DNA of 64,000 nt from an uncultured Hormoscilla sp. (lineage in GTDB: Bacteria > Cyanobacteriota > Cyanobacteriia > Cyanobacteriales > Desertifilaceae): NCBI GenBank assembly GCA_963921275.4, contig OZ001293.3:6144001-6208000 (forward strand). Direction: 5' to 3'. Positions within the stretch are counted from its first letter, which is position 1; each line of letters starts with the position of its first letter. Both the position numbers and the translations under genes were made by a program. Shown in pieces: positions 1 through 6,811 of the stretch. Below the pieces are notes generated by a model that saw only the letters and a list, made by a program, of their open reading frames with translations, had not been told where the DNA came from and ran no database searches.

Positions 1-704
1 TTCGGAGGACACCACGATCGCTCTTGTCAATTTATGGTCCAACACAAGTATATAAAAAATCTGTTAAGTAAAAGTAGGTTCAATCATCGATTACACAATA
101 TTGACGAACCAATTTGGATGTTTTTCTTCCAAGTTATAGCTCAAACATTTAAAGAGCTCAATCCGGGTCAAGAATATATTCTTGATAGTTTCCCGGTGCC
201 AGTATGTGATAATATTAGGATTGATAGATGCCAAATTTATAACAAGGAAGAATATCGAGGGTATATTGCCAGTAAAAAACGTTATTTTTATGGATTAAGA
301 GTTCATATGTTGGTAAACAAAAATGGAAAGCCAATAGAATTTTATCTAGATCCTGGTAGTTATAATGATGTTAAAGTTTTGCAATCTTTTGGCTTTGACT
401 TACCATCAAATTCAATAGTTTATGGAGATAAAGCTTATAATGATTATCAATTAGAGGATTTACTAAAAGAGTCGTCAAGTATAATGTTAAAACCTTTGCG
501 AAAAAAGAACTCAAAAAGAAAAGAATCTTCTTGTTTTGAATATATACAAAAAGTAACAAGAAAACAAGTTGAAACCTGTTTTAGTCGAATCACAAATTTG
601 TTTCCCAAGTCAATTCATGCTGTTACATCTAAGGGATTAGAGTTGAAAATAATTCTCTTTATCATAGCTTTTTGTATCCAATTTTGATAGGTCGCAACTT
701 GAGT
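1..704 (+). mobile_element. IS982-family element, copy 1 (5' part outside the window); DDE transposase
   Basis: ORF 34..687 is nearly identical to the 274-aa ORFs at 60359 and 62923. Motifs ILDSFPVPVC, YFYGLRVH, YGDKAY. Right IR TAGGTCGCAACTTGAGT at 688-704. Confidence 0.85.
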
Positions 705-1110
705 TATCTTCTTAACAATGTTAAGTACAAGGGTGCTAAGGTGGTGTTTGCTGGTTAGGAACTTGCTCTCACTTCGCTGTCATCCGCCTCAAGTCGGTTA
801 AAACAGACTAAGAGAATAATGATTAAAATTTGTAGCCAACCTTGACCAAATGCGTTCCCGGGAGCCTCTTAACGAGGGGAAATGGTAAAAAATTAAGGGG
901 CAAAATCTCCTCGCCGAACAGTATTGACAACGGCGCGATCGCTCTATAGAGACCTTTTTGAGGCGATCGCGCCAACCCGGTTTCTGGCAAGGGCGATCGC
1001 GCGGGGTCCAGAAACCCGGTTTCTCTGTATTTTTGCTGGTATTGGAGAATATGCAGTTTAGATGGATGAAGGGTTATAATTAAATTAGAGATGAATAAGG
1101 AGGATGTAAA

Positions 1111-1956
1111 ATGGTCAAGTCTGGGTTACTATTGCGGACTGTACCAAACGATCCGGCTGCGGTGCTCGCTGAAACTGGCTGGCGATATGTAGAGGAAGTG
1201 CAGCCGGACGGTACTACTAAGAATATCCGCGTTCCTCTTACCTCTATGGAGTTTTTGCACCCACAGGAAGGATATCACTTGCCAAACAGTACTTTTCACG
1301 AAGATGTTATTATTGATGCGCGGGATATGCTGACCCGTCGCTATGGGAAGGACCCAACAGTGGCAATATTCAGCGACCTGTTGATCCTATGGGATATGCC
1401 CGATCTTGATCGGCACTGTCCTGACCTGTTCGTGGTGGTTGGCATCAACAACAAACAGCAGTATCGTACTAGCTTTGTAGTTGCTGATGAAGGAGTGCGA
1501 CCAGCTTTCGCTATGGAAGTGGTGTCGCCTCGCTACCGCAAGGAAGACCGGCAAATTAAAGTTTGGGAATACGAACAGGCCGGAATTCAAGAATATGTAA
1601 TTATCGATCGCCGCACCCAGCGCGGTCAAGTAATAGATGAGGTGCTGGGTTATCGGTTAGTAGCAGGACGCTACCTATCTCTCATTCCTGACGATGACGG
1701 ACGCATCCCCTGCGAGACGATCGGGTTGTGGGTCAGTATGCAGGATGGGCGTTTATTGCTGGAAGATATGCAAACAGCCGAAAGGTTGCTGACATCCCAA
1801 GCGAAATCTCAGGAATTGGAAGCGGAAAATCTGGAATTGAAAGCGAAATCTCAGGAATGGGAAGCTCAAAAGCAGGAATTGTCAGCGGAAAATCTGGAAT
1901 TGAAAACTCGTTTACGGAAACTGGAAGCTCAACAAGAAGGGCGTCAATCATCATAA
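1111..1956 (+). CDS. Uma2 (DUF820) family PD-(D/E)XK endonuclease-like protein with coiled-coil tail
   Basis: Motifs CPDLFVV, MEVVSP, YEQAGIQEYVIID; repetitive AKSQE tail; RBS AGGAGG upstream. Confidence 0.85.
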   Translation: MVKSGLLLRTVPNDPAAVLAETGWRYVEEVQPDGTTKNIRVPLTSMEFLHPQEGYHLPNSTFHEDVIIDARDMLTRRYGKDPTVAIFSDLLILWDMPDLDRHCPDLFVVVGINNKQQYRTSFVVADEGVRPAFAMEVVSPRYRKEDRQIKVWEYEQAGIQEYVIIDRRTQRGQVIDEVLGYRLVAGRYLSLIPDDDGRIPCETIGLWVSMQDGRLLLEDMQTAERLLTSQAKSQELEAENLELKAKSQEWEAQKQELSAENLELKTRLRKLEAQQEGRQSS

Positions 1957-2469
1957 GGGTAAAGGGTAAAGGGTAAAGGGGTAAAATACGATCGGCGCAG
2001 AACAGTATTGACAGCACCCCTGCCCGCACCGTTCCGGAAAAATCGCGCGTGAAAGGTCTTTTTGAGGTCATCGCTCCCAACCTGGTTTCTGGCAGAGGGG
2101 CGATAAAGCACGGCAATTACCACTGGCAGCCTGTGTGCCAGTTGCTGGCTAAAACGGGCGATCGCTCCCTTGTACGTGCCTACATGCCATTGACTCGTCT
2201 CTGGGGGTAGTTCGAGTAGAGCAGAGACATCGAAAGGATGCTAGCAGTGGCCACATAGACTCTAAGCAGGTTCGATGTCTCTGCCGGTGCTCTTGTTCCA
2301 GGGTCCGAGGCACACAGGAGACATCGCTGCCACATTTTTCTCACTCGTTCCGGAATGCTGCCAAGTTTAAGTGTTGATAACTAAAGTATGATTTCCAAGA
2401 ATTTTATATATTTTTCCGGAAATATATTCTCGCGCGTGGTATAATATTGATAGTGCAAACAAAAACATC

Positions 2470-3057
2470 ATGAGATATGCCACACCGAGAGAAGCGTCAC
2501 AAGTCCTTCAGGTCTCGGAAAAAACACTCCGAAACTGGGATAGAGACGGAAAAATACAGACAATTAGAACTCCCGCTGGTCATCGACGATACGACATCGA
2601 CTCCGTCATTAATCCAGACGGCTCCCCAAGAATCAGAATCCTCTACGCCAGAGTCAGTTCATATAAGCAAAAGTCAGACCTTGAACGGCAAGCCGACTAT
2701 TTGCAATCCTTGTTCACAGACGGAAAACTTGTCAAGGAAATCGGATCAGGACTCAACTACAAACGCAAAGGGTTTTTATCCATTCTGGGACAAGTCATGT
2801 CAGGAGATGTCAAAGAAGTTGTGGTCTGCCACAAAGACAGACTTGTCAGGTTTGGACTTGACCTTATCGAGTGGCTCTGTCAACAAAAAGATTGCCAACT
2901 CGTGGTTCTCAACCGAAGTGACCTATCTCCAGAACGAGAAATGGTTGAGGATATCCTTGCCATCGTCCATGTCTTCAGTTGCAGACTCTATGGACTCAGG
3001 AAGTACAAATCTGCTATCAAAGAAGATTCGAGTTTACCCAGAAACGGCATTAGCTAA
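2470..3057 (+). CDS. tnpA: IS607 TnpA serine recombinase with N-terminal MerR-type HTH
   Basis: TLRNWD, RTPAGHRRYD, catalytic YARVSS, EIGSGLNYKRKG, DRLVRFG, FSCRLYGLRKY. Confidence 0.93.
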   Translation: MRYATPREASQVLQVSEKTLRNWDRDGKIQTIRTPAGHRRYDIDSVINPDGSPRIRILYARVSSYKQKSDLERQADYLQSLFTDGKLVKEIGSGLNYKRKGFLSILGQVMSGDVKEVVVCHKDRLVRFGLDLIEWLCQQKDCQLVVLNRSDLSPEREMVEDILAIVHVFSCRLYGLRKYKSAIKEDSSLPRNGIS

Positions 3058-4168
3058 AACCTGGTTTCAATGGATATCAGTAGCCAGATGGTGCTTCAAT
3101 CAAGCCATTGCTATACTCAAAAATCAGAAGATTGGCAAATATGACCTACGCAAAACGGTCATGGATATGGCTCCATCTTGGGTAAGTCAAACCCCATATA
3201 GCCCACGCCAATTGGCGGTATTTCAGGCTTATGAGGCACACAAAGCAGCAAGAAAATCAGGAGGAGATGCTAAATTTCGCTCAGTACGTGAATCTGTTAA
3301 GTCTATCCGGTTTCAGAAAAATAACTGGAAAAAAAAAATTTTTTATCCAACACAGACCAAAGGATTAAGGTTCAAAGCAAGTGAGCCAATTATAGACAAA
3401 ATGCACCATGAGCCTACATTGGTACTAGACAGAGGACGTTGGTTTATCTGTTATGCCATAGACGTGCCTAAACTGGAACCATTAAACAGTGAGCTAGCCA
3501 TCGCCCTTGATCCAGGTGTCAGGACATTTCTAACTGGGTTTGACGGTCAAGAAATTTGGGAGGTTGGCAAGTCTGATATGGGTCGTATCTATCGGTTAGC
3601 CAGTCATCTCGATCGGCTAATGTCTCGAATCGGCTTATCTAAAGGACGCCAATTTAAGCGGCTACGGCACTGCCTGCGAAAGGCGGCACAAAAGATTCGG
3701 GTTAAGATTCGTAACTTGGTTGATGAACTGCATAAGAAAGCAGCCAACTATCTATGCACCAAGTACAAAGTCATATTTTTGCCTACATTTGAGGTTAAAA
3801 ATATGGTCAAACGAGGCAAGCGACGGTTGTCAACTAAGACAGCACGTAAAATGGTTACATGGTCTCATTACCGTTTTAAGCAAACGTTGAAGCATCAAGC
3901 AGCTAAATACGGCTGTGTTGTAGTAGACGTGACGGAAGAGTACACCAGCAAAACTTGCTCAAAATGTGGGCACATTCACATAAAGTTAGGAGGCAACAAA
4001 CGATTTATTTGTCCCTCATGTGGTCACACTATTAGTCGTGATATTAATGGCGCTTTCAACATTTTGTTGAAGGCTTTGAGAGATACCTCCGCATCTGGCC
4101 TGATAGCTTCATTCCAGATTGTGCCATACTCAGAAATTTCCGGCAATTACAAGATTTTTTCGGGTTAA
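2477..4168 (+). CDS. tnpB: IS607 TnpB RNA-guided nuclease, pro-Fanzor-like; true start uncertain because the frame overlaps tnpA
   Basis: RuvC-I ALDPGVRTF, VIFLPTF, VTEEYTSKTCSKCG, zinc finger CPSCG, RuvC-III RDINGAFNI. Confidence 0.9.
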   Translation: MPHREKRHKSFRSRKKHSETGIETEKYRQLELPLVIDDTTSTPSLIQTAPQESESSTPESVHISKSQTLNGKPTICNPCSQTENLSRKSDQDSTTNAKGFYPFWDKSCQEMSKKLWSATKTDLSGLDLTLSSGSVNKKIANSWFSTEVTYLQNEKWLRISLPSSMSSVADSMDSGSTNLLSKKIRVYPETALAKTWFQWISVARWCFNQAIAILKNQKIGKYDLRKTVMDMAPSWVSQTPYSPRQLAVFQAYEAHKAARKSGGDAKFRSVRESVKSIRFQKNNWKKKIFYPTQTKGLRFKASEPIIDKMHHEPTLVLDRGRWFICYAIDVPKLEPLNSELAIALDPGVRTFLTGFDGQEIWEVGKSDMGRIYRLASHLDRLMSRIGLSKGRQFKRLRHCLRKAAQKIRVKIRNLVDELHKKAANYLCTKYKVIFLPTFEVKNMVKRGKRRLSTKTARKMVTWSHYRFKQTLKHQAAKYGCVVVDVTEEYTSKTCSKCGHIHIKLGGNKRFICPSCGHTISRDINGAFNILLKALRDTSASGLIASFQIVPYSEISGNYKIFSG

Positions 4169-4199
4169 ATGTATCTGCGAAATGAAAAGCAGCTCGTTA

Positions 4200-4400
4200 T
4201 CGATCCGGCCTTTTTTACCGCCCTAATAGGCAAGACACAATAGCTTATGCATGGCCGCACTTCTAATTGCTCGCGCCCGCCTTACCCCTTTCCAGCAGGC
4301 GATCGTAAAATGCCGGGCGCACAGGGTTAAAACGTAGAGCTGACATGGCTGGCAGATATAATGCCCCGGCGTTGCTTCCCATTGCCGGTCTTACAGATTG
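4200..4400 (-). pseudogene. IS110-family transposase C-terminal remnant
   Basis: Minus strand reads ICKTGNG / ALYLPAMSALRFNPVRPAFYDRLLERGK / AAMHKLLCLAY across frameshifts. Confidence 0.7.
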
Positions 4401-4459
4401 GAAACGATCGGACTTAGTCGTAGCTAGCTAAAACAATCCGTGTTATCTAGAAAAAAGTG

Positions 4460-4588
4460 TTTGACTACGGCAATGCGTAGGCAACGCTTCAGCGTTGCCT
4501 ACAAACCTGCCTTGGTGTGACCCTAGCATGAGCGGATTTGACTACGGCAATGCGTAGGCAACGCTGAAGCGTTGACTACAAACCTGCC
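4460..4588. repeat. Two ~52-bp direct repeats with an internal hairpin
   Basis: TTTGACTACGGCAATGCGTAGGCAACGC-N4-GCGTTG(C/A)CTACAAACCTGCC at 4460-4511 and 4537-4588. Confidence 0.85.
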
Positions 4589-4738
4589 ATTCTCTTCGGC
4601 TAGTAGTTAGTCGCCGTCAATTCACCTACACCGAGAATCGACAGGAGAATTCAACCCCCAGCCCCCGCCCCCTCGCCCCAAGCCCTGCCTAAAACCAGAC
4701 GAGAGTATAAAGTGCGAATGCGGGCCAGCAGTTACCCA

Positions 4739-6325
4739 TCAACCAACAAACACCCTCAAACCACCCGGTCGAGCTAAATCACCCTCCAAACCCACACCCC
4801 GATGATTAGCTGCCAGATGTCGGACAATCTTATAAATCGACTCTATTTCTTCAGAGGCCCCAGCAGCATCTGCCAACTCTACCAGAGACATGGACTGCTT
4901 TTGCTCCTGTAAAGCTTGCATCACCCGACGCTGCAAGTCCAGAATCTCCGCCGCCGCCTTCTTACCAGCTTCCACACCGGGTTGGTGATAGGCGTTGATA
5001 TTTACCAGGGAACCGTACAAACCTACTGCCCGATCGTACAGGGCGATCAAAGCCCCCACCGTGCGAGGATTAACTTCTGGTATAGTGACAGTGATCGAAT
5101 CACGCTGATTTTCATACAAAGCCTTGCGAGTACCCTGCAAGAAACCAGACAGATAGTCTCCCGCCGTAACGCCCGCTTCCACTTCTGGAGAAGTTCCTTT
5201 GCGGTCCTCTAACACTTCGATGAAGGTGATAAAGAAATTGGGTACCCCTTCCCGCAGCTGCTGCACGAAGGCATGTTGGTCAGTAGAACCTTTGTTACCA
5301 TAGACAGCAATCCCCTGATGGACAATATTACCGTCGAGATCCTTCTCCTTACCCAGAGATTCCATGACCAACTGTTGCAGGTAGCGACTAAACAGCAGCA
5401 GACTGTCCTTATAGGGCAACACCACCATATTTTTTTCGCCCTTGCCGTTACCAGCGAAATACCAGGATAAGGCCAATAGGGCGGCAGGATTATTTTTCAG
5501 CTGCTGGATGCGGGTAGCAGAGTCCATTTCCTTAGCCCCGGCCAGCATCTGCTGGATATCGATGCCTTGCAAAGCAGCTGGCAACAACCCCACCGCTGAC
5601 ATCTCCGAAGTCCGTCCGCCTACCCAGTCATGCATGGGGAAGGTGGCCACCCAGCCTTCAGATTTTGCCAGTTTTTCCAGTTTGCTATCATGGCCAGTGA
5701 TGGCGACGAAGTGGGATGCATGGGGAATCTGTTGGGATTCATAGGCCTTTTGCAGCTCAATCATGCCGTTGCGGGTATCCGGCGTTCCCCCTGATTTGGA
5801 GATGACTAATACCAGGGTAGTATTAAGTCGGTGTTCCAACTCGATCAAAATGTCATCAATGCCAGCTGGATCGGTATTGTCTATAAAGTGAATTGCCAGA
5901 GGCGGGTCGATCGGGGCCAGGGCCTGGGCGACAAACTGAGGGCCCAGGGCAGATCCGCCAATCCCGATGGAGAGTATATCTGTGAATTTGGGGGCGTGGG
6001 GCGGATGGATCTCACCAGAGTGAACCTTGTGGACAAAAGATTCTATCTGTTCGAGAGTTTCGACAATTTCTTGTTTCAGGAGACCTGTGGGGGCCAAATC
6101 CGGGTTTCGCAGCCAGTAATGACCCACCATCCGGTTTTCGTCCGGGTTGGCGATCGCCCCCTTTTCCAAGGCCGCCATATCCGCAAAAGCCTTGTCCAAC
6201 TTGGGCCTCATGGCCTCAACGAAAGCATCATCAAACCCCATGCGGCTAACATCGAGGTAAAATCCCAACCCCTCGTGATAATAAAGCCAATCTTGATAGC
6301 GTTGCCAGAGTGTCGCGGCGTCCAT
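4739..6325 (-). CDS. pgi: Glucose-6-phosphate isomerase
   Basis: [49 protein letters not shown]. Likely start MDAATLW at 6325. Confidence 0.96.
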
Positions 6326-6811
6326 AGCTTCTCTCAACTCATTTTTGCCATCACCAGTTTAGCTGTGCGGTAGCGGTCAGTCGAGTCAACCCAATTATCC
6401 CATACCACCAGTTCCCAGAAAGCATGGGAATGGACAATTGCCAATTGCGCGATCCGAAGTGCCGCACGGCATGGGTAAGCCATTGTCCTGCGCGTGCAGC
6501 GCTGCGCTGGACTACGCGACACGCTGACGCTGTCGCGCTATGGACATGAATAAATCATCAACAATTCTCCTCGTTCCCTGGCTCCCACCTGGGAACGCTA
6601 TTCTCAATTAGCCATCTCTCAAACAAGACATGCTCCCTCAACTTCTACCTTTAGGTATTAGACCCTAATTTCTGTTTTGGACTAGCTTGGGAAAACTATC
6701 CAGCTGTCGGACGTCGGGAGTTGCGAGCAACGCTGGATGACTTGCCACCAGTAAGTTCATCCTTTAAGCAGCATTGTATATTACCACCGTTTTAATTAGG
6801 AGTCAACAACT

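Follow-up and report, generated by a model that had tools for sequence, protein, structure and literature searches.

How can the gene of a putative RNA-guided nuclease begin 7 nucleotides after the ATG of a transposase gene and share 581 of that gene's 588 nucleotides, and what would the shared DNA encode in its second frame? The question is posed by a transposon of the IS607 family in a cyanobacterium, an uncultured Hormoscilla sp. (contig OZ001293.3, positions 6,144,001 to 6,208,000 of the forward strand; these 64,000 nucleotides are referred to below as the window), in which the serine recombinase gene tnpA and the nuclease gene tnpB occupy the same strand in different frames:

2372 to 4177, + strand: IS607 element with a terminal TG on either side, 2372-2373 and 4176-4177 (blastn ends of five full copies, empty alleles).
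2470 to 3057, + strand: tnpA, IS607 serine recombinase (MerR-type helix-turn-helix plus resolvase), 195 amino acids (aa), intact (Pfam MerR and Resolvase; NF033518).
2477 to 4168, + strand: tnpB open frame, 563 aa, pro-Fanzor type, with no internal stop (motif and PDB alignments).
2477 to 3057, + strand: dual-coding stretch of 581 nucleotides (nt), the tnpB frame being the +1 frame of tnpA (zero stops; recoding test).

The explanation that we prefer, and to which as a whole we assign a probability of roughly three in four, is that this is a pro-Fanzor IS607 transposon whose tnpB is likely translated through the overlap with tnpA, the overlapping part being predicted to form an N-terminal domain of the Fanzor2 type. 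Pro-Fanzors as such are already known. The original prediction, made from the letters of the window, had described an intact tnpB paired with an intact recombinase, and the frames of 563 and 195 aa agree with it; its word "compact" is misleading, the front third of the tnpB frame lying inside tnpA.

The residues that identify TnpB lie in its downstream part:

3509 to 3517, + strand: RuvC-I DPG with catalytic D345 (motif, PDB alignment).
3782 to 3784, + strand: P436 at the canonical RuvC-II Glu position (IFLP, aa 433-436; alignment with ISDra2 TnpB).
3935 to 3937, + strand: alternative catalytic Glu, E487 (TEEYTSKTC, aa 486-494), aligning to E467 of the mimivirus Fanzor2 ApmFz2.
3956 to 4042, + strand: zinc finger C494, C497, C512 and C515, and RuvC-III D522 (RD, 521-522).

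Judged by its sequence, TnpB is certainly an IS607 pro-Fanzor, itself a known kind of protein. The three motifs on which the original prediction had based this label are present, with P436 on the canonical Glu position, and the label is upheld by the pro-Fanzor regular expression published in PMC10711439, which matches the protein, and by ApmFz2 as best PDB match both in sequence (9B0L, E 9e-26; ISDra2 TnpB, E 3.6e-10) and in fold. The canonical Glu is absent and its alternative, six residues before the zinc finger, is invariant in two alignments (A1, A5). D345, E487 and D522 align to D324, E467 and D501 of ApmFz2 (PDB alignments; numbering from PMC11832414), and all catalytic and zinc-finger residues are intact. 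DPG together with the alternative Glu is reported in <1% of TnpB homologues (PMC10711439), so the combination is not a matter of chance. TnpB falls below the cut-offs of NF038280 and NF038281 and has neither a D-hydrophobic-G motif nor the canonical Glu, and it is not a Fanzor2 in the sense of having a eukaryote or eukaryote virus as host, its chromosomal context and relatives being cyanobacterial. In a RuvC tree built from 45 of 50 rows (L029, L046, L163, L173 and L174 were left out because no RuvC-I anchor was found in them), the 30 DPG rows, 9 of cyanobacterial type and 21 viral, are split from 15 non-DPG TnpBs by a branch with support 98/97. The phylogeny proposed with the original prediction thus places the protein with viral Fanzor2-like proteins.

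This cyanobacterial IS607 transposon has been copied recently. Its TnpA reaches 196 bits with the NF033518 model of IS607 transposases (cut-off 110), and the absence of terminal inverted repeats and of target duplication, together with a 2-nt crossover, is the IS607 geometry. By blastn, the genome contains five full copies of ~99.5% identity, one partial, right-half copy and one left-end fragment; tnpA is intact in all five full copies and the tnpB frame in four. The full copies lie in differing flanks and two of these sites are empty in relatives, as expected of recent mobility. Near-identical copies are present in same-genus genomes, and all 26 related loci in a species-level genome collection are cyanobacterial. 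Alignment of the other copies, a check proposed with the original prediction, fixed the ends at 2372 and 4177, and relatives' contigs in four RNA runs likewise lose their match after 4177.

Empty alleles of two sister copies, from same-genus genomes, contain a single TG (in the form G-TG-flank), filled alleles a TG at both junctions; the crossover dinucleotide is therefore TG. A left end at 2371 was rejected, since these alleles make G2371 a target base. Four genomes yielded no empty allele for either of the copies located at C1:196 kb and C1:1400 kb. The TG crossover, at 2372-2373 and 4176-4177, is well supported: among 17 relatives' loci, three of which lack the right end, the dinucleotides at left junction and right end agree in all 14 having both (7 TG, 7 AG), a count that is weakened by the choice of left ends by eye. 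In the sister group L017-L026 both junctions are AG and the left flank reads RG-AG at 8 of 8 loci; the group's tnpA lacks an ATG at the position aligned to the start in the window. Instead of the GG crossover of IS607 we thus find TG here and AG in the sister group, and regard the element as a variant, since transposase and crossover geometry are those of IS607.

The window copy has peculiarities of its own that weigh against its activity. Three substitutions in a long A run, at nt 3335, 3336 and 3339, are seen in this copy alone, and it reads KI at aa 287-288 where the sister copies read GN and ApmFz2 GT. Its flanks are discontiguous in same-genus genomes, left and right each coming from a separate RRG-TG site (L092, L093, L096, L097, L108): the left flank runs on differently in G003/G004, other sequence precedes the right flank in G001, and no clean empty allele for this copy was found in these genomes. 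The mixed flanks suggest a rearrangement between two insertions, and there may be no natural scar for the guide of this copy to match. It is thus possible, though unlikely, that the family is as described here and that the nuclease of the window copy is impaired or targetless. Against this, the copy retains every catalytic and zinc-finger residue, protein could come from three sister copies whose 563-aa frames are intact, and the KI change may be either real or a sequencing error, the run of A in which it lies being long.

That the overlapping part of tnpB is likely translated is indicated first by its lack of stops. Synonymous recoding of TnpA predicts a mean of ~11 stops in the +1 frame and none is observed; 0 of 20000 recodings were open, with genome or with uniform codon use, and the +1 frame is open over an equal length in 2 of 639 long ORFs (open reading frames) of the genome. 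TnpB queries retrieved 90 loci, 35 of them with a near-full tnpA on the same strand; the viral ones were found with an alignment query, a single-protein viral scan giving none. In all 34 loci of DPG type the +1 frame is stop-free after codon 30, the +2 frame containing 4-30 stops. These 34 comprise 17 cyanobacterial and 17 viral contigs (5 of them GVMAG-labelled) of 32% to 55% GC, and in 11 the +1 frame is open even though tnpA itself has internal stops. The exception among the 35, L079, has 25 stops in the +1 frame and a non-DPG TnpB. As a control, 30 loci were chosen by the tnpA model alone, with no selection on TnpB; 27 lie outside the source genome. The frame is closed in 21 of the 27 (6-19 stops), none of whose eight readable RuvC-I motifs is DPG, and open in six, where all three readable RuvC-I motifs are DPG and the four loci viewed all carry the PFW-like and SWF motifs described below. 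Eleven of the closed-frame controls have a called downstream ORF, whose overlap with tnpA is at most 32 nt, compared with 581 nt between tnpA and tnpB in the window.

Two motifs stand out within the overlap:

2774 to 2836, + strand: overprinted motif 1, aa 100-120 (PFW...S..LW), a predicted helix at the start of the Fanzor2-like N-terminal domain (pLDDT, the predicted local distance difference test score, 88/72).
2897 to 2926, + strand: overprinted motif 2, aa 141-150 (NSWF...), from the tnpA codons for QLVVL (profile alignment; pLDDT 88).

In 28 sequences, synonymous third-position identity of tnpA is 0.74 at TnpA residues 106-120 and 136-150, which correspond to TnpB aa 104-118 and 134-148, and 0.45-0.58 in the other windows ahead of the core. 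In a template-free model of aa 91-545 built from 91 sequences (pLDDT 86.8), the extension is ordered just at aa 101-120 and 141-150. Residues 100-539 of the model align to ApmFz2 53-518 (Z 27.7, root-mean-square deviation 3.5, 400 residues), the range also given by the first structural model; ISDra2 TnpB aligns from aa 176 onward (Z 25.2, 334 residues). Within the longer alignment, aa 100-178 superpose on the ApmFz2 N-terminal domain, 53-130, with aa 100 on residue 53, the first of that domain; the thumb-equivalent segment, aa 156-175, has pLDDT <50 and no confident model. Profiles put NSWF onto ApmFz2 N82-S83-W84-Y85, a match that requires the adjacent core as anchor, and N82 and S83 touch the omegaRNA pseudoknot in the cryo-electron microscopy structure (PMC11832414). 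The PFW motif also stands at the N-terminus of several viral proteins that have no same-strand tnpA. We conclude that the overprinted segment is likely a functional N-terminal domain of Fanzor2 type. Some facts count the other way: if recoding follows the codon usage of tnpA itself, which is already skewed, an open +1 frame has a chance of 0.3-1.4%, the loci compared are kin and not independent, and ApmFz2 is absent from the RuvC tree.

Translation could also begin further downstream. TnpB would then be a short protein of ~390-400 aa from Met165 or Met172, both of which are present, and the open +1 frame, without function, either a relic or a side effect of codon bias in tnpA. Canonical TnpBs generally function without an N-terminal domain, the RefSeq entry for the Oscillatoria HE19RPO copy (WP_254565193.1) gives 402 aa where the open frame has 558, and a profile of the N-terminal domain alone, run against the PDB, misses ApmFz2 and has no relevant match at E up to 10. 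We consider this improbable nonetheless: the frame is open at every one of the 34 loci over the whole range of GC, including the 11 with a dead tnpA, synonymous constraint falls exactly on both motifs, PFW is kept by the tnpA-less viral proteins, and the model superposes on the ApmFz2 domain.

Nor do we give much credence to the proposal that the domain is real and that ribosomes get to it not from the ATG at 2477 but through programmed +1 frameshifting out of tnpA or through internal initiation, the product then possibly being a fusion of the TnpA helix-turn-helix with TnpB. Residues 1-99, which evolve as under tnpA selection alone and have pLDDT <50, would fit such a route, as would the +1 stops of several loci at codons 18-29, the lack of the early ATG in L017, L019 and L025, and TTG codons 17 and 33 codons upstream of PFW. 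At L005 (1494-3194) an indel joins the N-terminal half of tnpA in frame to the tnpB frame just ahead of PFW, a natural fusion of this kind. At most loci, however, the frame is free of stops from codon 2 at the latest, and 14 of the 18 loci listed have an ATG 100-113 codons ahead of PFW; an internal start would have need of neither.

The recombinase frame is the older of the two, since the TnpA of overlapping elements is an ordinary IS607 recombinase, homologous over its full length to the tnpA of 21 non-overlapping loci. The N-terminal domain would then have arisen by overprinting, and so probably inside another gene. With less assurance than for the explanation given at the outset, we lean towards a wider reading, in which the Fanzor2 N-terminal domain arose de novo in the +1 frame of tnpA, became RNA-binding, and was freed by tnpA loss, while still being dual-coded in cyanobacterial pro-Fanzors and giant-virus elements; the disordered leader regarded as a nuclear localization signal ("NLS") in Fanzor2 would be a remnant of the first 100, unconstrained codons, and crossover, omegaRNA 3' end and target-adjacent motif (TAM) would have switched jointly from GG to TG or AG, with TAMs R(C/G)TG and RGAG. 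That the domain is older than the overlap, tnpA having been overprinted on or recombined into it or the element having entered cyanobacteria from viruses, is very improbable: cyanobacterial rows do fall among viral rows of the RuvC tree under a midpoint root, leaving the direction of transfer open, and the accessible text of PMC10711439 holds that direction cannot be ascertained, but the direction of host transfer leaves the age order of the frames unchanged, and that order is set by the ordinary TnpA.

Three further predicted features concern the RNA that would guide the nuclease:

4052 to 4177, + strand: predicted omegaRNA scaffold over the tnpB 3' end, 5' end approximate (right-end alignment, covariation).
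2369 to 2373, + strand: predicted TAM, the AAG-TG target motif spanning the left junction (AAG from the host, TG the crossover dinucleotide).
4178 to 4197, + strand: predicted guide, from the right flank (role and length by analogy with ISXfa1 and ApmFz2).

The omegaRNA location given by the original prediction is about right, with the right end at 4177 and a predicted conserved, covarying core at 4056-4089 plus 4171-4175. Twenty aligned right ends have a sharp boundary after GTATC(T/A)G. Hairpins at 4056-60/4066-70 and 4078-80/4087-89 both covary in this alignment of relatives, and a predicted pseudoknot joins the loop of the second (4082-86) to 4171-75. Over 13 pairs, 98.1% of cells are paired and six pairs change on both sides, in a structure derived from the same alignment of kin sequences; 0 of 500 shuffles reach this level of pairing and slid controls give 34-43%. 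A pseudoknot partner at 4112-4116 was dropped as not conserved. The proposed RNA is weakened on two counts: the pseudoknot is 99% paired with four of its five pairs invariant and in coding sequence, only one changing on both sides; and of 16 RNA runs with a share of 0.05-0.17, the four checked yielded contigs all from relatives of 90-95% identity, uninformative on expression. Folding of single sequences gives little signal, with z -2.5 over 4050-4177 and values from -1.2 to +0.6 over three shorter segments; RNAalifold across both subgroups gave no conserved stems between 4090 and 4165, and Rfam had no matches in window positions 1-6500.

All five full copies lie at RRG-TG, against a background of 4.9% for RRG before TG, and a purine lies two bases ahead of TG at 16 of 16 distinct TG-group sites (background 54%). 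The right end of the element reads TCTG, and in ISXfa1 the fixed flank base belongs to the scaffold (PMC10711439). From these features we infer a TAM of R(C/G)TG, which would mark the empty site and spare the filled one. The base following the terminal dinucleotide varies among 31 distinct flanks (T13, C9, G5, A4), so the guide would begin at 4178.

A candidate promoter lies 5' of both start codons:

2437 to 2445, + strand: extended -10-like motif TGGTATAAT, seen directly, with putative promoter function.

Similar -10-like motifs are found upstream of tnpA in relatives; a promoter scan gave two sites where 4.0 were expected, the 2437-2445 motif not being among them.

The element might work as follows. 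TnpA would release it in circular form and integrate it through a crossover at TG, with the chemistry of other IS607s. A single transcript with two start codons 7 nt apart may yield either TnpA or the 563-aa TnpB, in which residues 1-99 would be an unconstrained linker, open merely for the ribosome to reach residue 100, and residues 100-120 and 141-150 are predicted to lie against the nuclease core and to touch the pseudoknot of the omegaRNA, as their counterparts do in ApmFz2. With a guide derived from the flank, the omegaRNA (~4052-4177, ending in TG) would target the nuclease to R(C/G)TG followed by a guide match. The excision scar would have this form, and recombination at the cut scar would restore the element; scar cleavage and restoration by recombination have been demonstrated for other IS607 TnpBs. 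In the filled locus the guide match would be preceded by TCTG and escape cutting. The domain, born by overprinting, would have been retained once eukaryotic and viral Fanzor2s lost tnpA. That the nuclease is active remains our inference; both activity and TAM are testable predictions, and an element with several copies, intact genes and defined ends is amenable to such testing.

If this explanation is true, overprinting has given rise to a structured nuclease domain within a different essential gene of the same transposon, a rare event and one that mutation can test, and the origin of the Fanzor2 N-terminal domain is accounted for. Pro-Fanzors in databases would then often be annotated 150-180 residues short, and clones made from such calls would lack the domain; no assay of a cyanobacterial pro-Fanzor was found in the accessible pro-Fanzor literature. 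The TG and AG crossovers conflict with the "strictly GG" rule for IS607 and predict new TAMs.

Several other loci and features were noted. All seven above-cut-off TnpB matches in the genome are copies of the element or its relative L129 (G000:C1:3054906-3056372), a second, distant pro-Fanzor of 33% identity with a ruined tnpA and a 490-codon open frame keeping SWF. The right-half copy (L127:1402-3114, minus strand; G000:C1:3756378-3757316) forms an in-frame fusion with a Radical SAM N-terminus (PF04055). The fused ORF has 570 aa, the final ~310 of them being the C-terminal part of TnpB with all RuvC residues, and an intact right end follows; the fusion is probably a one-off deletion. The left-end fragment (L103:341-456, minus strand; G000:C1:2430341-2430455) is 116 bp long with a C-TG junction. 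In other cyanobacteria, the overlapping elements L157, L160 and L147 encode TnpBs without the zinc-finger cysteines (EAYTSKTVSWTG), L157 and L160 retaining DPG and the alternative Glu. The GVMAG-labelled L066 encodes a DPG protein of 585 aa with a WW variant of the PFW motif, its tnpA-like gene lying on the other strand. In the window, the element's neighbours are an IS982 transposase (1-687, cut by the window start), a Uma2-family endonuclease (1111-1956) and a minus-strand ORF (4739-6337), which we take to resemble glucose-6-phosphate isomerase. A dispersed ~56-nt repeat with dozens of genomic matches lies at 2271-2326, and two palindromic 52-nt repeats spaced 77 nt apart lie at 4460-4588.

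Among known systems, IS607, ISXfa1 and CboIStron (PMC6188088, PMC13565253, 10.1101/2023.11.20.567912) share with this element a serine recombinase with N-terminal helix-turn-helix, the lack of inverted repeats, a 2-nt crossover and a downstream tnpB. The same sources state that IS607-family tnpA and tnpB "often overlap", and it is short overlaps that are known. GG is given as crossover or target in PMC6188088, the PMC10711439 supplement, PMC13565253 ("strictly") and 10.1101/2023.11.20.567912 (CboIStron). In the accessible literature searched, figures and ISfinder entries lying outside the search, we found no gene-length tnpA/tnpB overlap, overprinted origin of a Fanzor2 domain or TG crossover. 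ISDra2 TnpB (IS200/605, PDB 8H1J) has the same WED-REC-RuvC-zinc-finger core and an omegaRNA over the gene end, but a canonical Glu, a Y1 transposase, no N-terminal domain and a weaker match than ApmFz2. The IS607 TnpB of ISFba1 (PMC11061315), of 387 aa, also lacks the domain and aligns from aa 178 onward; its purine-rich TAM, AGGAG, matches the left flank and ends in AG like the sister group, so non-GG ends have precedent.

The pro-Fanzors, or TnpB2, of PMC10711439 are alike in DPG, in the Glu six residues before the zinc finger, in an IS607 TnpA, in cyanobacterial relatives and in a viral Fanzor2-like clade, and differ in the crossover, given as GG, here TG. The enzyme assayed in that paper is ISXfa1 TnpB; its accessible text and supplement hold no mention of a tnpA/tnpB overlap, nor does its main text mention an N-terminal domain or reading frame. 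The mimivirus Fanzor2 locus was sought with a degenerate motif, which had no matches. The accessible text of PMC11832414 describes the N-terminal domain as unique to Fanzor2 structures and offers no origin for it. ApmFz2 (L79; PDB 9B0L; PMC11832414) has ~25% identity, a GGG TAM and an omegaRNA scaffold of ~205 nt mostly beyond the ORF, whereas that predicted in the window is ~110-125 nt and inside it. It resembles the window TnpB in the register of the catalytic triad, the NSW motif, a disordered N-terminal leader and, if the prediction made here is right, a pseudoknot next to the guide; the layout of the pseudoknot predicted here is that described for both ISXfa1 and ApmFz2.

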